Source: a virus
Length of the DNA stretch: 42,780 nt
IMG/VR virus record: IMGVR_UViG_3300012211_000002
Reading direction: 5' to 3' (one strand)
The position numbers and the translations under genes are program-made. The notes beneath the pieces are model-generated. The model did not search any database, was not told the origin of the DNA, and worked only from the letters and a program-made list of their open reading frames with translations. Shown here piece after piece: positions 21,451 to 42,662 of the stretch; the first letter of the stretch is position 1, and each line of letters opens with the position of its first letter.

Positions 21451-21924
21451 TTACTCCTCAAAGTGAATATGTGCGTTCGACTGCCCCGAATACGCCGGCG
21501 CTACTGAGGACAACACAGCAATGCCGATGCCATTGTTAGCTGACGTAGCACAAACCAGCTGCGCTCCCTCTGTCCACGCGTTCCACGTATAGGTTGCCCT
21601 CTGGTTAATGCCTTGGTCGAACAACGAGCTGTTCGACGTGTAGGAGGGCTCCGACGTAGCGTTGGAGCCAGCCGTAGCTGCAGCCGTACTCGGATCCGTC
21701 GAGTCCAGGTTTCTAGGAGTCACTGACGTCGTCGTGCCAACGGTCGTGGACCTCTGGATGATCCATTCCAAAACACCGTCCGCCGCCGCTCCCAACGTAG
21801 ACAAAACAAAGTGAAACACCTTGGGCCGCGTCGTGGCCGAGGCTATTAGAACCAACGCCGTCTTGAAAGAAGACGTTGTCGTTGCTTGGTTTCCGGGAAT
21901 TGCAAAACGTCGCGCCATATACAT
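21451..21924 (-). CDS. Putative structural protein (S/T/A-rich)
   Basis: 157-aa ORF with GGGGAG RBS, located among fibre genes. Confidence 0.6.
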   Translation of the reverse strand: MYMARRFAIPGNQATTTSSFKTALVLIASATTRPKVFHFVLSTLGAAADGVLEWIIQRSTTVGTTTSVTPRNLDSTDPSTAAATAGSNATSEPSYTSNSSLFDQGINQRATYTWNAWTEGAQLVCATSANNGIGIAVLSSVAPAYSGQSNAHIHFEE

Positions 21925-33240: not shown

Positions 33241-33687
33241 TTATTCTAACTTATGGAGCTCTTGCACTCCCAACTCTTCCATCAACTGCCTCTGTGCCTC
33301 TGCTTCTGCCGCTTCTTTCTTCTGCAGCTGCTCCACCTCCTCTTTGCCCGTAAATCTTGTATCTCCCGAGATTCCAGGCTTGAATCTAATCAAGACTGAA
33401 TTCGCTCTCTTGAATAGGTAAGTATCCGGGGTGTCTTCTAACAGCTTCTCTATCTGCCCTCTCTGGACCATCTGAAACGAAGGCAAATAAGGGATCGTCA
33501 GAAGCCCGTTATGCAGTCCTAACACATCTGGAATTGGCGCCCCTTCCTCTGCATGGACAACGAACAAACCTGCATCCGCATCATTCCACCAGCAAGCCGA
33601 CTTCTTACACTCACACCACCGAATCTTCCTGTTCCTGGCATCTGGCACCACCAAAGTAGCACAGCATAATGACCACATCAGTTTCAT
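33241..33687 (-). CDS. Hypothetical Cys-motif protein
   Basis: 148-aa ORF; LCC...WCECKKS; ATGA overlap. Confidence 0.6.
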   Translation of the reverse strand: MKLMWSLCCATLVVPDARNRKIRWCECKKSACWWNDADAGLFVVHAEEGAPIPDVLGLHNGLLTIPYLPSFQMVQRGQIEKLLEDTPDTYLFKRANSVLIRFKPGISGDTRFTGKEEVEQLQKKEAAEAEAQRQLMEELGVQELHKLE

Positions 33688-34448
33688 GTTGTCTTCCTCT
33701 TCAACAGCGCCTTCAACTGCTGCAAAACCTTCTCTGGATTCTTAACTACTTCTTCACTACTAATTCTAATAACTTTATAGCCAGCTTTCTCGAACGCTCT
33801 ATCTTTTCTTCTATCTCTCCTACGAACGCTTAGTTTAGAATGCCAATAAATTCCATCGCACTCAATCACTACTTTCAACTTCGGCAAGAGAAAATCTGGA
33901 AAGTAGCCAAACATACTCTGTTGAAATCTATAATTCAATTTCAGCTTCCTAAGAATCTTCATCATCGACTTCTCTGCTGCATTTGGACTTTCTTTTAATC
34001 TTCTGCCATGCCTTTCTGCAAAGTCTTTATTCAAAAACAACTTTCTTCTACTACGAGAGAGTTTTCTTCGTCTACCCGGGTGATCTTGGTAATGCTTTCT
34101 TACGTCAACTTTTCTTTTAGCGCATCTTTCTGAAGTCCAAGCTGCCTTTAACGCCTTTCGCATTCTAGCCGCCCAAGTTCTATTTGCCCATAACCTCTTA
34201 AATCTGAGAGAACGCCTCTTCCTTTCAGCTGGATCATTTCCGATAACTGTATTCTTTTCTTTAACAATGGCAACAATTTCTGGCGTAAGAGAAGCTATAA
34301 TCTTCTTGCGCTGTTCCTCAGCCCACTCAGGATCTGACCACCACTTCTTTGTAATTCTGCGACGCTTAGCCTTATAGCTAGACGACTTTTCTCTCCGCTT
34401 AGCTGCCACTGAAAGTTTTTTTCTATGTTCCTGTGAGAAAATTCTCAT
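33684..34448 (-). CDS. DUF559/Vsr-like endonuclease with NUMOD-like basic helical repeats (putative free-standing homing endonuclease)
   Basis: SQEHRKKLS-type N-terminal repeats; C-terminal PDFLLP...VIECDGIYWH...RDRRKD...GYKVIRI; TGATG overlap. Confidence 0.8.
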   Translation of the reverse strand: MRIFSQEHRKKLSVAAKRREKSSSYKAKRRRITKKWWSDPEWAEEQRKKIIASLTPEIVAIVKEKNTVIGNDPAERKRRSLRFKRLWANRTWAARMRKALKAAWTSERCAKRKVDVRKHYQDHPGRRRKLSRSRRKLFLNKDFAERHGRRLKESPNAAEKSMMKILRKLKLNYRFQQSMFGYFPDFLLPKLKVVIECDGIYWHSKLSVRRRDRRKDRAFEKAGYKVIRISSEEVVKNPEKVLQQLKALLKRKTT

Positions 34449-35455
34449 CAGAACCACCACCACTTATTCTGAGAATACCAAGTCACCGCTTTTTCTATTC
34501 CCTCGTCTAACGGCACTTGCACTTCCCAGCCCAATGCCTTCAACTTCTCACACTCTAATGCGTAACGCCTATCGTGGCCAGGTCGCAAACTAGACTCATC
34601 TATAAACTGAATATGCTCTTTCCAATCTCCCAACACAAAACCGTTACTGGAAACTCTGCTCAGCGCTTTGAGGATTTTCTCCGCCAGCTCTATGTTCTTC
34701 AGCTCTTGATTGCCCGCTATGTGAAAAATCTGCGCTGGTTCGTAATCTTTACTGAGCAACAGTAGCAACGCTCTCACTTTGTCTTCCACCCAAATCCACT
34801 GTCTCACATGTTGCCCATCGCCATAAACTGGAAGAAACTCTCCATTCAGAGCTTTTCTAACAAAGGTCGGAAACACTTTCTCTGCTCCCTGAAACGGACC
34901 GAAGATATTCTCACATCTCGTAATGGTCGTATGCAGCCCAAATGTGTGAGCATAGCAGATCGCCAACGCATCTCCCCCTGCTTTGCTAGCGCTGTAGGGA
35001 TTCGTAGGATTGATACGACTATCTTCCCTATATCTGTCTACACTTGTAGGAGTCGCCCCGTAGACTTCGTCTGTACTTATCTGAATATATCTCTTCACCT
35101 TATCTTTTCTGGCTTCTTCCAGCAGATTACCAGTGCCCACTACGTTGGACTGAATAAACTGCACCGGGGACTTCACACTCCTGTCGACAAAGGTTTTCGC
35201 ACCGAAATTTATCACTACATCGATCCCTTCACAGATTCCACTGATATCGCCACACAGATCTCCATACACCAAACGTAATCTTCCGGTCTCCAAAGCCTTC
35301 TTCACCACATCTGCCGTGGTCAATCTCAGGAGATTTCTTTGGTCACTGTTTCTCACTAACCCAACCAAGGAAAAATCTTCTCTCTCTGCCAACACTTGTC
35401 TGATGAAAGCACTACCGACGAATCCACTCGCACCGGTAATCAACAGTTTCTGCAT
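34448..35455 (-). CDS. rfbB: dTDP-glucose 4,6-dehydratase
   Basis: TGASGFVGS, TFVDRS, ISTDEVYG, YSASKA, YGDGQHVRQWIWVED, RPGHDRRY. Confidence 0.92.
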   Translation of the reverse strand: MQKLLITGASGFVGSAFIRQVLAEREDFSLVGLVRNSDQRNLLRLTTADVVKKALETGRLRLVYGDLCGDISGICEGIDVVINFGAKTFVDRSVKSPVQFIQSNVVGTGNLLEEARKDKVKRYIQISTDEVYGATPTSVDRYREDSRINPTNPYSASKAGGDALAICYAHTFGLHTTITRCENIFGPFQGAEKVFPTFVRKALNGEFLPVYGDGQHVRQWIWVEDKVRALLLLLSKDYEPAQIFHIAGNQELKNIELAEKILKALSRVSSNGFVLGDWKEHIQFIDESSLRPGHDRRYALECEKLKALGWEVQVPLDEGIEKAVTWYSQNKWWWF

Positions 35456-35636
35456 TCTAATCTCTCCTCTTCTATTTCGATAGTTCTTCTCTGAGACATC
35501 ATTTTCTCTGTTCCAAGCCTTTTTAATGACCCATTTCCCGCGTCAGGAACGTTCCTACAGCGATTTTCTTAAAAGAGATGGGGAATTTTAGGTACCTAGC
35601 TCCTTCCAACGCTATAAAACGATCTATCATTTCTAT

Positions 35637-36398
35637 TCACACCGCAAAAAGGCTCTGCTTCTTCTCTAACACGCTCCACTGCTCCACTTGCTTACTCACC
35701 TCTAGCCAACCCGCAATGGACGAGCCTGCATCGCCCCAAAAACCACTCACACTGTAAAGCTCGAATTTCTTCTCCTGCAAATAAAAATTGTTCACATCGC
35801 TGATCTCCAACTCCCCTCTAGGAGAAACCTTACACTGCCTGATCTTCTCAAATACTGTCGAGTCATACAGATACACGCCAATGACTATTGGAGTGCTGGA
35901 ATTTACCAAAATTCTATCTGGCTTCTCCACTATTCTGGCTGTTGCCCCATCATAAAGGACACAGCCGTAATTCTGAGGATCTCGCACTCTGGTCAAAAAC
36001 AAGCCTGCTCCCTCCCTACTCTGCCTCTCAAAATCTTGTACCGCCGGGTAGATCGACTCCCTTAGAATATTGTCTCCCAAGATTACGCACATCTGGCTCC
36101 CATCTACAAACTCCTCCGCTAACGATAAAGCTGCCGCTATTCCACCCTCCCCCTCCTGATATACATAATACAATCTGTTGAAACCAAACTCCCTCCCATC
36201 TTTCAACAGCTTCATAATTTCTTCCGTGCTCTGACCGCCTACCACTACCAAAACATCTTTGATTCCAGCTTCCGCCAAGGTATGAAGAGGAAAAAAGATC
36301 ATCGGCTGATTATACACAGGCAAAATGTGCTTGTTGACGCACGAGGTCAATGGGCGAAGTCTGGTACCTAATCCACCGGCTAGTAAAACACCTTTCAT
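35637..36398 (-). CDS. rfbA: Glucose-1-phosphate thymidylyltransferase (short RmlA/SpsI type)
   Basis: MKGVLLAGGLGTRLRPLT, NKHILPVYNQPMI, ILGDNI, IVEKP, SPRGELEISDVN. Confidence 0.92.
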   Translation of the reverse strand: MKGVLLAGGLGTRLRPLTSCVNKHILPVYNQPMIFFPLHTLAEAGIKDVLVVVGGQSTEEIMKLLKDGREFGFNRLYYVYQEGEGGIAAALSLAEEFVDGSQMCVILGDNILRESIYPAVQDFERQSREGAGLFLTRVRDPQNYGCVLYDGATARIVEKPDRILVNSSTPIVIGVYLYDSTVFEKIRQCKVSPRGELEISDVNNFYLQEKKFELYSVSGFWGDAGSSIAGWLEVSKQVEQWSVLEKKQSLFAV

Positions 36399-36649: not shown

Positions 36650-37168
36650 TTATAGGTCATGTTTTAATGTCTCAGCAATCTTTGCTTCTGCTTTTACCAG
36701 TTCGCTCGCTAGCTGCCTCCGCCTCACCGCATTCTGCGCCCGATCTGCCTCTTTGAGTTTGGTCAGCAAGCGCTCCTTTTCAATAAATGGATTCAGCAGC
36801 TGCTCCAAACCAGCATCACTGCCAGAAACGTAGTTAGGCGAAAGAACAAATGCCCGGAAAAAAGCCACAAGTCGTCCCACTGGTGTCTGCACATCCGTAG
36901 AACTTCCAAGCTTTTTGCTGTTCACAATTGCTTTTACTAGAACCAGCTTAGCTTCCAATTCTTGAACCCGTTCCAAATTGTGCTCTTCTGTCGCCTCTTC
37001 TATATCCGCAATAACAAGTTCTTTTTCCAAGAATGGATCAACTCTCTCTTCAATATCACCATAATCTGGAGTAGGGGGAATCGGTCGAACTCTCTGAATA
37101 ATAATAGATCGAAAGAGGGCCGCAAATCTTCCTGCCGGTGTGGGTGCCGAAGTGATTCTTCCATCCAC
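36650..37168 (-). CDS. Hypothetical protein made of two tandem homologous halves
   Basis: TPAGRFAALFRS...PFLEKE versus TPVGRLVAFFRA...PFIEKE. Confidence 0.65.
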   Translation of the reverse strand: MDGRITSAPTPAGRFAALFRSIIIQRVRPIPPTPDYGDIEERVDPFLEKELVIADIEEATEEHNLERVQELEAKLVLVKAIVNSKKLGSSTDVQTPVGRLVAFFRAFVLSPNYVSGSDAGLEQLLNPFIEKERLLTKLKEADRAQNAVRRRQLASELVKAEAKIAETLKHDL

Positions 37169-37221
37169 GATGCCACTCCTTGGGGGACTGGAAAAGTATT
37201 TCTCATTCTCGTATCTCCGTG

Positions 37222-37764
37222 CTACTTTTTCACCTTCTTCTCTTCTAGGTCCAAAGTGAATTCAGGAGCCAATTCTGGAATTGGCTGCTCATACACCAAA
37301 GTCCTCTCATACGCTACCCGAGCTAACTTCGCCATCCAGCCCATCACTGCCTCTTCTTTCTTCTTCTCTACACTGATTTCTGCCCCATCATCTGCTCTCT
37401 TCAACTCCAACTGAATGGGCAACTTCTTCTGCTCTGGGAAAGCTCCCAATCTCTCCAGGAACTTCAACGACAACCAACCATCATCCACCAGATTCCTATC
37501 TACTCCCTTAACTGCTTTCTGTGCCAAACCAAAGATCTGCTCCCTTATAAACTCCAAATATTCTGTCTGATCTGCCTCATGGACAATACCTGCCACCGTA
37601 TTTCTATTGAGGCCCTCCGCTTTAGCAATCTTCCCTGTCCTCTGACCGGCAATGTACCTCATCAAAATCCTCTGCTGCTGGGGCAAAGGGGTGTGCCTCC
37701 TCTTCTTTTTAAACGGAGCTGCTGTAGCTCCCACCTTCCCACTTCTTCTTCCACCCTTTTTCAT
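37222..37764 (-). CDS. HTH protein, putative terminase small subunit
   Basis: HTH (GQRTGKIAKAEGLNRNTVAGIV) followed by helical SLKFLERLG; lies at the head of the long operon. Confidence 0.5.
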   Translation of the reverse strand: MKKGGRRSGKVGATAAPFKKKRRHTPLPQQQRILMRYIAGQRTGKIAKAEGLNRNTVAGIVHEADQTEYLEFIREQIFGLAQKAVKGVDRNLVDDGWLSLKFLERLGAFPEQKKLPIQLELKRADDGAEISVEKKKEEAVMGWMAKLARVAYERTLVYEQPIPELAPEFTLDLEEKKVKK

Positions 37765-37807
37765 GGTCGCTCGTCCTCTTCTGTCTCTGCCCGTCCAACC
37801 CCTTATT

Positions 37808-38128
37808 TTAGTCCTCCTTAAGTTGCCCAGCAATTCTGAACCTCTTCTCCTCCTCTTTCTCCACTGCCACCAGCATGAGACACATATTGAAGTGCCTTCT
37901 CAAGGCCGCCCTCTCTTCATCCCTCTGCTTTGCTCCCAGTCTATTGATGTCCGACTTGGTCTGCAACAACTCCGTAATAGAGGCTTTTTCTTCATGGAGG
38001 CGATTGATCTCCAACTTCGACTGTGACAATTCTCTTCTAGTACTGTAAACTATGCCACCCGCTGTAAAGATCACACCCATCACAAAGATGAAGGCCCCCA
38101 CCCAACTGGACCACATGATCACAACCAA
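37808..38128 (-). CDS. Membrane-anchored coiled-coil protein
   Basis: N-terminal hydrophobic helix then heptad region; AAAAAGGAG RBS. Confidence 0.6.
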   Translation of the reverse strand: MVVIMWSSWVGAFIFVMGVIFTAGGIVYSTRRELSQSKLEINRLHEEKASITELLQTKSDINRLGAKQRDEERAALRRHFNMCLMLVAVEKEEEKRFRIAGQLKED

Positions 38129-38305: not shown

Positions 38306-38639
38306 TCTAGCTCCCGATTCTTAAAAAATTGTATATTCCAAGTCAGCGTGCCAACAAGCAGAGTGTTAGGGAGTGTCCAACTTTGGGTTCACTGAATTTT
38401 TCCTCGGGTCTTTACTTAAGGCTTCCTGGGGGGTAGTACTGGACGTTTTCCCAAATTCTGTCCACGACTGCTTCGCTGGTCCATCAATGACTTTTGCAGG
38501 GGACGAGGGACGAGGAGTCGTATCCGGTAAGTCGCACATCGCATGCCGCCTTCTTCCGACAACGTGTAAACCGAATCGACGTTCTTGAAAAAAGGCGTAC
38601 TTTTGTCTTACTCCTTGCTTGCTAACGTTCTACCCATAC

Positions 38640-38678
38640 AAAAAACTGGGATCGAAAAAGCCTCTCTCGATCCCAGTT
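38640..38678 (-). terminator. Rho-independent terminator
   Basis: Perfect 12-bp inverted repeat AACTGGGATCGA (38644-38655) / TCGATCCCAGTT (38667-38678), ending in a T6 run on the minus strand. Confidence 0.8.
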
Positions 38679-38714
38679 GCTTTGGAGGAAGTTCCATGCT
38701 CTGTTCGACTTTAC
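38640..38714 (-). ncRNA. Candidate ~75-nt small RNA
   Basis: Bounded by a near-consensus sigma70 promoter and the terminator; no credible ORF; 5' end is estimated. Confidence 0.45.
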
Positions 38715-38720
38715 GAGGGA

Positions 38721-38749
38721 AGTATGGTAGCCAAGCGTTCGTCTGTCAA
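38721..38749 (-). promoter_or_regulatory. Sigma70-type promoter
   Basis: TTGACA (38749-38744), 17-bp spacer, CATACT (38726-38721). Confidence 0.7.
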
Positions 38750-38833
38750 GGATTTTCTGCCACTTGTTGTTTCTTTTGAAAACGCTACCTCGCTCCCTAT
38801 TCCAACCAATGCCATTCTACTTTCTCCTTCTCT

Positions 38834-39805
38834 TGATTCATTCTGCCTCTTTGAAACTATCTTTCGTATTGATTCACTCTTCCAGTCTGCTACCATCTCC
38901 TCTTTTGGCTCATTCAATCTGTCTGAAACTCTCAGCGTCTCTGATTCACTCAAGGACCTTGAGACTCTCTTCTTTCTTAATTCATTCCATTTTCTTGAAA
39001 CCCTCATTGCCCATGATTCATTCATATTCCTTGCTACTATCCCTAAAAATAATTCGATCCCGAGGGTGACACTCTCAGTGCCTTTGGCTCGCTCCTATTC
39101 TGTGCTACTCTCAGCGTTAATGGCTCATTCCGTACCAGTAAAACTTTCTTCGTGCTTGATTCATTCTCGTATTCTGAAGCTATCTGGTTATCTGATTCAC
39201 TCAGACATCTTGAAACTTTCCGTTAATGTTATTCATTCATATACCTTGAGACTCTCACACCTGATGATTCGCTCCGGATTCTTGACTCTCTCCTCGCACT
39301 TGGCTCGCTCCCCGTATTTGGAACTCTCCTTCTGCTTGACTCGCTCGCTCATTGTGATGCTTTCATGTATCACTGGCTCACTCTCACTCCTTGCTACTAT
39401 CAGATGAAATAATTCACTCCGCTTCTTTGAAACTACCATACTCCTTGGTTCATTCTGTCCGACTGAAACTTTCTGACACCTGGATTCATTCTGACGTCAT
39501 GCTGCTATCTGCCCGATTGATTCACTCCACCGTTTTGAAACTCTCTTACTCCTTGGCTCAATCTGTGATCGTGAAACTCTCCACGCCAATGGTTCATTCT
39601 GACGCCGTGCTGCTATCTGTCTGGTTGGTTCACTCATAGGTCATGTCACTCTCATACGCTTTGATTCACCCACAACCACTAAAACTATCCGTCACATTGG
39701 TTCACTCCCAACCTATGAAACTATCCGCTACCATGATTCATTCAACAGCTTTGAAACCCTCGCCTGAATTGATTCACTCCCACACTATGAAACTATCGGC
39801 TGTCA
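38834..39805 (-). repeat. TIGR-like dual-repeat array 1: 27 units of 36 nt
   Basis: Plus strand alternates 10-nt repeat A (e.g. TGATTCACTC, TGGCTCATTC), 8-nt variable, 10-nt repeat B (e.g. TGAAACTCTC, TGCTACTATC), 8-nt variable. Repeat A runs from 38834 to 39770, exactly 26 x 36 nt. Strand inferred from the adjacent gene. Confidence 0.9.
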
Positions 39806-39808
39806 TGG

Positions 39809-40960
39809 TTATTCACACGGCCAATTCGGTGGTGCTATATAACCTGTATGTCCCGGCAGATGGTCAAACACATAAGGCTTTACCGGAGGCTGTCCAAACT
39901 CCGACTCCCATGCCACGTGGTGCCAATGCGCCAAAAATATCTTCGTCGCATATCGGCAGGAACGCTGCAAAATATGCGCTGGAGGCAATTTCCCGATGGA
40001 GTAAGCTTTGTAGGCGTCTGTGCTCTTGCCGATATTAAACTTCTGCAACTTAGCTACCGCCTGATCTTTAAACAGCAACTGCTCATTTCTCTGCTTCTCC
40101 AATTCCCATCTCTCTTTTAGCAGCCGCCCGTAGTAGCACTCTTCCTGCCCGGAGAATTTAAGAAACGACTGCCCGATCTTCCAAAACAGCACCTTCAAGT
40201 CTGCATTGAAAGGCCGCTTAGAAATCACCTGTGAAATTGCTTTCCAATCCAATTCGACTTCAGGAAGCAAAGTCGCATAAACATGTGCCTTCGGTAAACC
40301 AGAGGCCTCTACAATATTGTCTTCGTAGAGCATAGTTGTATCTGCCGTACCACCCAAAGCCACTACCGTCTCCAAAACCATATCCCGGTCCGGGACCGAA
40401 AGAGTAATTCCAGCCTGCTGTAGAACACGAAATGGTTTCTTGTTGTTTGCCGTACAAGTCATGAGGAAAGCATCCCACGGAGAATACTCTTTTCTGAAAA
40501 CAGCTATCTGTTCCCTCGTCTTGTCCCTACCCTGCCAGATTTCATCTCCTGCAATGCCGCCAAACCTCCAAACTGCCCCCGCTGTCCTCGCTTTCCTGAT
40601 ATCCACATGCGCCGACAATCCAGCCGCTATGACCGGACCGATGCCGTAAATGCTCATCGCCCAACGACCTTCCCTGTGATTGCTAGCATAATTCTCCAAC
40701 GCCTTCTTAATCTGTGTTTCTGTACTAAGTGTCTGTTCCTGCAACCAGACGATGACTTCCACTGGCTCTCTTTCCTTTTCTGGCTTTGCCTCTGCTGCTT
40801 TCTCGATCGAAGCAATTTGATTCGTGGTAGCCTTTCTGATTTCCTGTAGCTGATAATAACTGTCTACAAGAAACCGCGCTTCGTCTTTCGACAACACCTT
40901 TGCTGCCTTGGCCAAATCCTTGCTAAGCTTAACGATCGGAGATAGAATTGTAGTACTCAT
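39809..40960 (-). CDS. TasA-like Nop-domain protein (IS110-related RNA-binding fold, no RuvC/HNH nuclease evident), 383 aa
   Basis: Coiled-coil N-terminus (FLVDSYYQLQEIRKATTNQI), SIYGIGPVIAAGL, VWRFGG, KRPFNADLK, AHILQRSCRYATKIFL; ATG 40960 after AAAAAGGAG; flanked by 36-nt arrays. Confidence 0.8.
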   Translation of the reverse strand: MSTTILSPIVKLSKDLAKAAKVLSKDEARFLVDSYYQLQEIRKATTNQIASIEKAAEAKPEKEREPVEVIVWLQEQTLSTETQIKKALENYASNHREGRWAMSIYGIGPVIAAGLSAHVDIRKARTAGAVWRFGGIAGDEIWQGRDKTREQIAVFRKEYSPWDAFLMTCTANNKKPFRVLQQAGITLSVPDRDMVLETVVALGGTADTTMLYEDNIVEASGLPKAHVYATLLPEVELDWKAISQVISKRPFNADLKVLFWKIGQSFLKFSGQEECYYGRLLKERWELEKQRNEQLLFKDQAVAKLQKFNIGKSTDAYKAYSIGKLPPAHILQRSCRYATKIFLAHWHHVAWESEFGQPPVKPYVFDHLPGHTGYIAPPNWPCE

Positions 40961-41006
40961 TTGGCGCTCCTTTTTGAAATCTGCCAACGAAACGATACGC
41001 AAAATA

Positions 41007-41035
41007 AGTATAAGGGTTTCCCCATATTTAGTCAA
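41007..41035 (-). promoter_or_regulatory. Sigma70-type promoter for the Tas-like gene and array 1
   Basis: TTGACT (41035-41030), 17-bp spacer, TATACT (41012-41007), 46 bp upstream of the ATG. Confidence 0.8.
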
Positions 41036-41043
41036 GGAAAAAA

Positions 41044-41620
41044 TGATTCACTCAACGGTCGCGTTACTATCGAGGTCAATGATTCACTCCCGGATCTTGT
41101 CACTCTCCTTCATGATAGTTCACTCTTACTGCTTGTTACTCTCAGTTGCAGTGGCTCACTCGTGGTGGATGAAACTCTCATATTCATTGTCTCGTTCTTC
41201 GATTTTGATACTTTCGCCCATGCTGACTCGCTCATGTAACGTGAAACTCTCTTCTTCCGTGGCTCACTCGCGATATTTGAAACTCTCTTCTTTCTTAGCT
41301 CGCTCATTGAAGGTGAAACCCTCTTCTTCCTTGGCTCACTCATGCTTCATGATGCACTCTTCGATAATGGTTCGATCACTTCATTTGACACTCGCTCAAT
41401 GCCTGGCTCATTCAGTGTGCATGTGCCAATCTTCCTTTTTGATTCGTTCCCTGGAATTGCTACTAACTTATGGTTTGACTCAATCAACTATCATACTACT
41501 ATCTAGGGGCAATAGTTCATTCTGTAGTATTGAAACTTTCTGCTGATGTGATTCGTTCACAACCAATGAAACTATCGCGTCCTCTGACTCACTCTCTGCT
41601 GTTGACACTCTCATATGTCT
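41044..41620 (-). repeat. TIGR-like dual-repeat array 2: 16 units of 36 nt
   Basis: Same repeat A and B as array 1; repeat A at 41044, 41080, 41116 ... 41476, 41513, 41549, 41585; degenerate terminal repeat at 41621. Confidence 0.9.
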
Positions 41621-41659: not shown

Positions 41660-41881
41660 TCAATCTGGAATTTTCCGAGCAGGCCATTGCTGCATTTCAT
41701 CTGCGACTTTTCTAGCTTCCGACAAAAGCTCTTGCCTTACACCAGCCCTCTGAGCCAAATCCGCCCAATAGCGAACCACCAGATCTGCCAATTGATCTTG
41801 CGCTCGAAGGACGAAGAGTGGCTCATTTTCCCCTGCTTTGTCATAACAAGAAACGCCTCTACTTTTCGTACTCATCATCAC
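41660..41881 (-). CDS. Small phage-type hypothetical protein
   Basis: EPLFVLRAQDQLADLVVRYWA motif; AAGGAG RBS. Confidence 0.65.
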   Translation of the reverse strand: MMMSTKSRGVSCYDKAGENEPLFVLRAQDQLADLVVRYWADLAQRAGVRQELLSEARKVADEMQQWPARKIPD

Positions 41882-42426
41882 TCCTTTTCTTTGTCTTCAA
41901 ACAACGCTCTCTCCTTGTCCTGTGCATCCAACCTCTCCAACAGCCAGAAAATCATTTTACCACGGTCAGGCCATTCCATATCCCGCCCAGTTGCTTGCCG
42001 CCACATCTTGATTCCGCGCATGTCCGCTTGACGAAACAACTCAAATGTAGTTTCCAAATCTGCACATTGCTGACGCACCATGGCAATCTCAGCTTGAAGG
42101 ATCACCTTCTCACATTCTACATCTTGCACTGCTTCCTCCAAAACGCGCTCTCTTATCTTCGCGTCATGGACGATCAAATCTTCTCGCCCGCAGGTGGCAC
42201 ACTCTCGACCTTCTTCATGGAAACGCGCACATCCTTTTGAGAATTGCTCTTTTATCTCCGCATCATGCCGGGCCAGCACACCTTTATAAGTTGCAAGTCC
42301 CTGATACAAGAAGAGATCAAGCTCTGAGTTCTCTTTTTTAACATCAGCAACACAAGCTCTATAGCCAGCTTCCTCCGCTGCCGCCACTAGGGCATCCACC
42401 TCAGACTGCTCGTAGACACGACTCAT
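41878..42426 (-). CDS. Coiled-coil hypothetical protein
   Basis: 182-aa ORF; ATGA overlap; internal duplicated HDA[EK]I[KR]E segment. Confidence 0.65.
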   Translation of the reverse strand: MSRVYEQSEVDALVAAAEEAGYRACVADVKKENSELDLFLYQGLATYKGVLARHDAEIKEQFSKGCARFHEEGRECATCGREDLIVHDAKIRERVLEEAVQDVECEKVILQAEIAMVRQQCADLETTFELFRQADMRGIKMWRQATGRDMEWPDRGKMIFWLLERLDAQDKERALFEDKEKE

Positions 42427-42662
42427 GCTAATTTCTCCAATTTTAATCTTTTGATAGACTTCAGTGGATAACAGGCAATCCCAGACCCAGCCTCACCATT
42501 CAGAGCTAACGCCACGCCATTTCTGGCGGCAACGTACCCATATCTTTTTGCCTGATCTATGATCTCTTTTCCACCCCAATGGAAAAAACCAACCTGATCC
42601 GAACACTCGTCAACTTCCAACACCAGAGACTCTCCATTCAAAAATGTAATATGTAGCTTCAT
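42423..42662 (-). CDS. Hypothetical protein
   Basis: 79-aa ORF with overlapping start and stop. Confidence 0.6.
   Translation of the reverse strand: MKLHITFLNGESLVLEVDECSDQVGFFHWGGKEIIDQAKRYGYVAARNGVALALNGEAGSGIACYPLKSIKRLKLEKLA

Follow-up and report, generated by a model that had tools for sequence, protein, structure and literature searches.

A predicted seven-helix domain at the wedge-loop tip of a phage dual-repeat TIGR-TasA protein

The window analysed here is the whole 42,780-nt stretch of the IMG/VR virus record IMGVR_UViG_3300012211_000002, and it contains a TIGR-Tas locus whose Tas protein carries about 100 extra residues in one loop. The tasA coding sequence occupies positions 39809–40960 of the minus strand, stop codon included. 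It starts with an ATG at 40958–40960, has an AGGAG motif 6 nt 5′ of this codon and runs without internal stop to encode a protein of 383 residues, hereafter P0001. Two dual-repeat TIGR arrays flank the gene on the same strand, upstream at 41044–41612 and downstream at 38834–39797. The rest of the window is phage-like, with endolysin and virion protein matches and every gene on one strand. The longest contig listed for the P0001 protein cluster is 129.6 kb, and a tblastn search of P0001 against named phage records gave no match.

P0001 is the TasA of a dual-repeat TIGR system. It matched the NCBIfam model NF052498 (TIGR_Tas_endo, TIGR-Tas system RNA-guided endonuclease) with an E-value of 1.5e-42 and 146 bits, for a cutoff of 100. 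As a single query against the sequences of the PDB it retrieved TaTasR (9mty, E 2.6e-9) and TasH (E 1.1e-6), and a profile built from 116 homologs retrieved 9mty at E 2.9e-25, TasH at 5.4e-16, IS621 at 1e-5 and ISCro4 at 1e-4. The whole protein was modelled by AlphaFold2 (AF2) with a mean predicted local distance difference test (pLDDT) of 94.6 and a predicted template modelling score (pTM) of 0.89, and the best ten Foldseek matches of this model were all TasH or TasR chains (probability 1.00). The family model, the PDB profile matches and the Foldseek matches thus agree with the initial annotation of the locus, which had recognized a Tas-like protein from the DNA letters alone. Membership of the IS110 family was rejected, the NCBIfam IS110 model reaching 21.4 bits against a cutoff of 140 and an N-terminal RuvC domain being absent. 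The search for a nuclease domain in Pfam gave sub-threshold hits only (HNH_3, E 0.54, residues 346–368; Transposase_20, E 0.12), and the AF2 model opens with coiled-coil helices at residues 14–93 and shows no N-terminal globular domain. On these two grounds we assign P0001 to the nuclease-free TasA type.

The extra residues lie in the wedge, a name defined for TaTasR G210-K230 in the Methods of Xu et al. 2026 (10.64898/2026.09.09.750476). Profile-to-9mty and phmmer alignments place the equivalent segment of P0001 at G135-N252 (40205–40558, minus strand). It is bounded by the motifs WRFGGIAG (residues 131–138, 40547–40570) and KRPFNADLK (residues 248–256), between which lies the sequence GRDKTREQIAVF...DWKAISQVI (residues 144–246, 40223–40531). 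The segment of about 100 residues that the initial annotation had reported between these motifs is therefore real, its noted position of 40222–40530 being one base off. We measured the gap from W.F.G to RP.N..LK by regular expression in 118 scorable proteins out of 121. This gap is 113 residues in P0001, about 101 above the usual loop, and 12 residues in 79 of the 118, with LDPTVEWKKGEK as the typical loop. The remaining gaps are of 13–24 residues in 3 proteins, 63–79 in 21, 92–93 in 2, 111–128 in 12 (two of them being the window's own protein) and 152 in 1. The statement that the two motifs are normally a dozen or so residues apart thus holds for the majority form. The surplus is also visible in family alignments, where residues 10–382 of P0001 span 268 positions of PHROG 4285 and residues 28–350 span 214 positions of NF052498, both leaving about 105–109 surplus residues in P0001.

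The insertion replaces a very small part of the loop. Just four tip residues of the 12-residue form (LDPT..W-KKGE-K) are substituted, while the stem, with W142 and K248-RPFN, is conserved; the inserted domain proper accordingly comprises residues 143–247 (40220–40534, minus strand), between the invariant W142 and K248-RPFN. The wedge of P0001 begins with IAG at the place where LDPT is the usual start. In the profile of 116 homologs the stretch ..faGldptv aligned to IS621 residues 234–240 (G-L-D-P-T-V to 235–240), and the catalytic S241 of IS621 is located in the loop between helices α3 and α4 of its Tnp domain (PMC11208158). From this alignment and the position of S241, the insertion site corresponds to the S241 loop, which bears out the earlier proposal that it sits in the equivalent of the catalytic-serine loop of IS110. 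No serine of this loop is invariant in the alignment of the long inserts described below.

We then considered the structure predicted for the insert. In the full-length AF2 model it consists of seven helices (residues 144–158, 161–171, 176–182, 192–201, 213–219, 224–231 and 239–246), with pLDDT values of 92–98 for the block. When the insert was modelled alone from 11 aligned inserts, the same seven helices were obtained (pLDDT 87.7, pTM 0.77). The insert is thus confidently predicted, in context and alone, as a compact all-α globule, and the alternative of a disordered segment is not what the models give. Two parts can be distinguished on the minus strand: an N-terminal three-helix part (residues 144–182, 40415–40531), related to the common wedge inserts of 60–80 residues, and a C-terminal four-helix part (residues 192–246, 40223–40387), which is found in the long class only and contains D214 and Y228. 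The insert is acidic (net charge −5, isoelectric point 4.8); the remainder of P0001 has a basic character (net charge +11, isoelectric point 9.4). A net negative charge is found in 10 of the 11 long inserts. With this charge and without conserved basic residues, the domain is unlikely to bind the DNA backbone directly. Within the coding DNA of the insert (40382–40401, minus strand), the GC-rich palindrome GTCCCGGACCGGGA precedes a T-rich stretch. It encodes a conserved VPDRD turn and scores as terminator-like; terminator-like sites are at chance level in the region (4 observed, 2.6 expected).

Searches for relatives of the insert outside Tas proteins were negative. The insert matched none of the families of Pfam and NCBIfam, and this holds for the intein families too. 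A phmmer search with residues 139–247 against 1.84 billion representative sequences gave four matches at E≤1e-3: the protein's own cluster, another long-class Tas protein (P0124), an immunoglobulin-repeat protein and an ankyrin-repeat protein, the last two being rejected as repeat artefacts. The insert profile A2 found none at E≤10 among 1917 candidate proteins of 61–224 residues, a region-restricted word search returned two matches, P0001 itself and P0004, and the best score of a protein atlas search (0.83) was under the atlas's own lead threshold. On the searches made, the insert appears to have no free-standing or differently fused homolog. Fold searches with the isolated insert likewise gave nothing significant, the best Foldseek E-values being 3.7 in the PDB and 2.5 in BFVD. 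VIA-align comparison with 48,161 chains peaked at Z 4.9 with acyl carrier proteins over 54 of 113 residues; we did not accept this kinship, as the score is under the noise level quoted for helical bundles.

Before a function is sought, it must be asked whether the segment is a protein feature at all. Intragenic tigRNAs, the guide RNAs of these systems, have been reported in the wedge-loop coding part of BlTasA (10.64898/2026.09.09.750476), and a lengthened loop could also stem from an intein, from a wrong frame or from faulty assembly. However, neither repeat motif of the arrays occurs, with at most one mismatch, within 39809–40960, so that a guide RNA embedded in the coding DNA of the insert was rejected. 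The family searches above hold no intein match, to either side of the insert the reading frame stays open and is conserved, and the same insert is present on independent contigs (P0003, P0004/L081). These non-protein readings are largely refuted, and we regard them as extremely improbable.

In order to determine how common such inserts are, we scored the wedge in three samples, a protein list, IMG/VR loci and metagenome loci. All three were ranked by likeness to the insert-bearing protein of the window, so that the share of insert-bearing relatives may be inflated. Among the 75 of 80 IMG/VR loci that could be scored, 46 had the 12-residue loop, 26 an insert of 60–82 residues, 3 one of 92–98, which differs from the others and does not look helical, and none one of 111–128. 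The corresponding counts for the 71 of 80 metagenome loci scored were 35, 30, 4 and 2 (L081 and L083). Altogether a wedge insert was present in a third to half of the scored relatives of the three samples, and inserts of 60–152 residues occur at the wedge site in about one third of close homologs. The wedge site is an insertion hot spot. The initial annotation had taken the segment as a departure from the normal protein: this stands in so far as the 12-residue loop is the majority form, but the insertion is not unique to the window.

The long form of 111–128 residues is rare, being absent from the 75 IMG/VR loci scored and found in 2 of the 71 from metagenomes. Its members are P0001 of the window, P0003, P0004, P0011, P0016, P0025, P0036, P0049, P0119, P0017, P0021 and P0124. 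Eleven long inserts align throughout, with W142, A164, P176 and D214 invariant and Y228 near-invariant. Comparison by hhalign of the long- and short-class insert alignments gave a probability of 96.6% and an E-value of 5e-10 over the first ~50 columns only, a score to which the shared LDPT..W stem contributes. Since these first columns match the short helical class, the long form looks like the short module with four helices added, which account for its excess of about 45–60 residues over the inserts of 60–82 residues. Add-ons at the wedge tip are thus a common class within a known system, and P0001 carries a rare, long form of them. A second, unrelated-looking class was seen at six loci (L015, L020, L022, L104, L109 and L111), where wedge segments of 93–98 residues start with IAGP..., are rich in aromatic and β-type residues and end with a normal W.KGEK tip.

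The distribution of the inserts was examined on a tree of the core. For this tree, 116 of the 121 proteins were used, the wedge columns were removed, and a quick IQ-TREE run was made with branch support from the Shimodaira–Hasegawa-like approximate likelihood ratio test (SH-aLRT) only. The five sequences left out were P0002, a shorter call of the window's protein, and P0081, P0089, P0103 and P0121, which have 12-residue loops. The six length classes required 24 changes on the tree, for a minimum possible of 5. Compact versus all other forms required 22 changes, of which at least 8 are forced by well-supported branches, and the long class 5 changes, of which at least 4 are forced. Constraining the 11 long-class rows to group together cost 177 log-likelihood units (p 0.0003 in the approximately unbiased test, which was run after the tree was seen and with a group set by insert length). 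The long-class bearers are polyphyletic on the core tree. Homologous inserts are carried by non-sister cores that adjoin compact relatives, and the nearest cores to that of the window, P0005 and P0007, are compact. Several nearest core relatives with the 12-residue wedge (P0006, P0008–P0010, P0012–P0014 and P0018, 347–377 residues) exceed other compact TasA proteins by 70–100 residues; being long despite a compact wedge, they must hold extra sequence elsewhere.

This scatter of the long class implies that the module was lost or exchanged repeatedly. Either it was lost many times to an identical 12-residue loop, or it was transferred between tas genes through recombination at the conserved flanks. 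The proposal that the insertion defines a new Tas subtype is not supported for the insertion taken by itself, as inserts are common at the site and scattered on the core tree instead of forming one clade; moreover, "wedge insertion" is already a tracked variable in 10.64898/2026.09.09.750476. Frequent turnover would also be expected of a neutral, dispensable decoration, tolerated by a permissive surface loop and having no role of its own. The 24 changes over 116 rows fit such a decoration, as do the lower conservation of the insert (mean pairwise identity over the 55 long-class pairs of 0.30, versus 0.51 for the core) and the fact that most relatives work with a 12-residue loop. On the other hand, a fold was confidently predicted from as few as 11 sequences, the long class at 16–30% identity to the window's insert still has helices that align and core residues that do not vary, and in the closest pair, P0001 and P0003, the insert (64% identity) is nearly as conserved as the core (68%). 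We therefore consider a purely neutral decoration unlikely.

The guide RNA arrays were analysed with respect to the possibility that the domain grips an extended or unusual feature of the tigRNA. The upstream array contains ~16 units of 36 nt and the downstream array ~27, with a few one-base phase slips. In both arrays the unit consists of a 10-nt repeat resembling GAGUGAAUCA, 8 variable nt, a 10-nt repeat resembling GAGAGUUUCA and 8 variable nt. The motif GARTGARYCA was found 55 times for 22 expected and GAKAGTTTCA 31 times for 7 expected, both clustering in the two arrays, and Tandem Repeats Finder gave a period of 36/72. Phase slips or degenerate units were seen at 39347–39383, 39059–39095 and about 41491–41527. 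In some units the second repeat reads GATAGCAGCA or GATAGTAGCA, which suggests that two loop-repeat variants exist inside one array.

Co-adaptation to an altered guide has precedents, as the insertions of CsTasR and PateTasR contact extended tigRNA stems and the wedge loop touches box C of the tigRNA (10.64898/2026.09.09.750476). Yet the arrays of the window are made of ordinary 36-nt dual-repeat units, and the arrays of compact and insert-bearing relatives share the same 10+8+10+8 layout and a near-identical repeat consensus. Arrays were also detected equally often beside both forms. An array was called at an identity of at least 0.55 for a lag of 36 nt in a 180-nt stretch, the background in this phage not exceeding 0.41. 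With duplicate genes removed, such an array adjoined 36 of 70 compact genes and 23 of 47 genes with inserts of 60–82 residues. The counts were 1 of 6 for inserts of 92–98 residues and 1 of 2 for the long class, and the repeats of the long-class locus L083 have a mixed 36/37-nt spacing. As the array format is equal with and without inserts, guide co-adaptation is argued against, and we hold it to be very unlikely.

Possible targets of the guides were searched for in the 42.8-kb window itself, using 33 spacer pairs in four arrangements with gaps of 0–3 nt and at most one mismatch. A single match was obtained, at 21739 on the plus strand (unit at 41089, arrangement rcB+A, one mismatch); with ~0.5 such matches estimated by chance, it is not evidence of self-targeting. 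Open reading frames of up to 262 codons cross the arrays on both strands, at 38619–39407 (+), 40908–41546 (+), 39643–40038 (+) and elsewhere over 38600–39800 and 41040–41620. Their repetitive translations (..LIHS..LKLS..) stem from the period of 36 nt, which is divisible by 3, and they are almost certainly not genes. A promoter-like site (TTGACT-17-TATACT, 10/12 consensus positions) lies between the upstream array and tasA at 41007–41035 on the minus strand; this is a consensus match only, in a region that has 6 such sites for 4.4 expected. About 150 nt past the downstream array, a terminator-like hairpin of 16 pairs is followed by a run of T (38644–38678, minus strand), and TIGR arrays have been described as typically ending with a predicted rho-independent terminator (PMC12045711).

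Two further elements of P0001 resemble those of characterized Tas proteins. Helices 25–56 and 68–93 of the AF2 model form a predicted coiled coil (residues 25–93, 40682–40888, minus strand). The coiled coil is the dimerization scaffold of Tas proteins according to the TasR and TasH papers (PMC12045711, 10.64898/2026.09.09.750476), and by analogy it may have the same role here. Near the C-terminus, Y363...H371 (39848–39874, minus strand) occupies the position of the Tyr/His dyad described for tigRNA processing in dual-repeat Tas proteins (10.64898/2026.09.09.750476). This stretch aligns to PLY...GH of TasH and PWI...GH of TaTasR, and P362, Y363, G370 and H371 are invariant across 11 long-class proteins. 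Judged from the alignment, the dyad is probably retained, its catalytic role being putative. The public gene call for the same protein, P0002, has 317 residues and starts at V67. It lacks residues 1–66 and would drop the N-terminal stretch together with the whole first coiled-coil helix (residues 25–56). We prefer the 383-residue start, because homologs align from residues 1–10 on and because of the AGGAG site. Some kilobases further downstream than the TIGR locus, at 33684–36398 on the minus strand, lies a series of nucleotide-sugar genes. They encode, one after the other, a protein with a DUF559/Vsr-like endonuclease domain, an NAD-dependent sugar epimerase/dehydratase of the GDP-mannose 4,6-dehydratase family, and a nucleotidyl transferase.

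What the domain might do was approached through published work on the wedge of other Tas proteins. In TaTasR, the wedge loop keeps the RNA-DNA duplex and the non-complementary strand apart (PMC12045711). The wedge loop of PateTasR partitions the figure-eight tigRNA, and flipped bases of box C are sandwiched by it (10.64898/2026.09.09.750476). In SpTasH, the two Nop domains shut the substrate groove through the wedge loop and a β-hairpin, and these elements also constitute the docking interface for the HNH domain (PMC13421893). The equivalent hairpin and loop of PlTasA cap the displaced strand (10.64898/2026.08.11.744272). Since the wedge parts the strands, and since that of TasH docks the nuclease, a wedge-tip domain in a nuclease-free TasA would occupy the junction or the nuclease-docking space. 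We thus propose that in a TasA dimer bound to tigRNA and DNA, a self-folding seven-helix domain would stand at each unwinding junction and fill the space in which TasH docks its nuclease domain. There it could cap or clamp the displaced strand or enlarge the clamp and roadblock, which would stabilize or sterically extend the R-loop roadblock, or it could offer a docking surface for proteins. The bulk would have been added without any change in the guide RNA.

Taken together, the identity of the protein, the placement of the domain and the idea of a junction module form a reading towards which we lean, if only slightly. The mechanical part, in which the domain acts as a cap or clamp, is put forward tentatively. 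Several points weigh against this picture. The direction of the domain relative to RNA and DNA is taken, by analogy, from published structures of other Tas proteins. An acidic surface beside DNA is no obvious stabilizer of an R-loop, and no conserved surface motif pointing to a specific activity was found. Evolution faster than that of the core, with repeated loss or swap, would equally fit a dispensable module or one engaged in an arms race.

A partner-docking role is given a weight comparable to that of the cap or clamp, and it too is advanced with hesitation. The domain would then be a recruiting or effector-docking module, as the initial annotation had suggested, whose surface brings a phage or host factor to the DNA specified by the tigRNA, and TasA would act as a programmable recruitment platform. 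An acidic domain without conserved basic patch, predicted as an autonomous globule at an exposed loop tip, would suit this role, and the wedge loop of TasH does belong to a docking interface for another domain (PMC13421893). The occurrence of different module types at one site with a mosaic distribution is as expected for interchangeable adaptors, and TasA loci are sometimes operonic with ParB-like partners (PMC12045711). However, no candidate partner was found: the neighbouring open reading frames at 41660–42662 and 36650–38128 matched no Pfam family, no ParB-like gene was seen beside tasA among the open reading frames scanned, and the long-class neighbourhoods available comprise three loci only, namely the window, L081 (2.2 kb) and L083 (8 kb).

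One step further, the wedge tip may be a plug-in socket, in which phage tas genes exchange unrelated folded modules (short helical, long helical and β-rich) through recombination at the conserved flanks, each module, the acidic seven-helix one among them, recruiting or evading a different partner at the DNA chosen by the tigRNA. We consider this generalization doubtful. If true, such proteins would form a family of recruitment platforms that is natural and programmable, and an arms race would have shaped it. Very small DNA binders and nucleases that can be programmed are being developed from TIGR-Tas proteins. If the wedge tip accepts, and in nature acquires time and again, whole folded domains with no change in the guide, it would be a natural site for engineering cargo into TasA. 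The wedge inserts would also offer a clue to the role of nuclease-free TasA in phages. Their frequency, for which the sampled share may be inflated, qualifies the published view that dual-repeat Tas proteins retain a compact Nop core. The long helical domain appears to have no recognizable relative, and its job can be proposed by analogy only. The full-text searches made gave no description of a folded wedge domain in dual-repeat TasA, for which reason we call the domain undescribed; wedge lengths for this clade may already be plotted by Xu et al. in their Extended Data Fig. 1a.

The closest known systems are the dual-repeat TIGR-TasA systems, such as FpTasA of Flavonifractor plautii (Faure et al. 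2025, PMC12045711). Like them, P0001 lacks a nuclease domain and has a solo Nop/Tnp-like domain with a predicted coiled coil at the N-terminus, and its locus has the same 36-nt edge/loop repeat arrays on both flanks and on the same strand, the terminator-like hairpin and the Tyr/His pair. It differs by its helical wedge-tip domain of ~101 residues, the wedge length of FpTasA lying outside the comparison. The wedges of TaTasR (9MTY) and SpTasH (9W04 and others) are found at the same place, between the end of the W.[FY].G helix and the (R)PWN..LK helix, with homologous flanks. They are far smaller: the wedge has 21 residues in TaTasR and 12 in compact TasA relatives, whereas 113 residues separate the motifs in P0001. 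In addition, RuvC or HNH domains approach the wedge region of TasR and TasH, and P0001 has neither.

The stem-loop Tas proteins PateTasR, CsTasR and CPR TasR (Xu et al. 2026, 10.64898/2026.09.09.750476) also carry lineage-specific modules on the Nop core. Their insertions co-vary with extended stems or loops of the tigRNA, in contrast with the class of P0001, which keeps the guide format. In the IS110 bridge recombinases (IS621, PMC11208158), the loop that follows the conserved G-L-x-P turn of the Tnp/Nop domain is equivalent in topology. Unlike them, P0001 has no DEDD RuvC domain and no conserved serine, and its loop would be a strand wedge and not a catalytic element. The nearest counterparts of the insert itself are the common helical wedge inserts of 60–82 residues in phage TasA relatives, which share its insertion point and the LDPT..W stem and are related over the first ~50 columns; the long class to which P0001 belongs adds four more helices to them and is far rarer.

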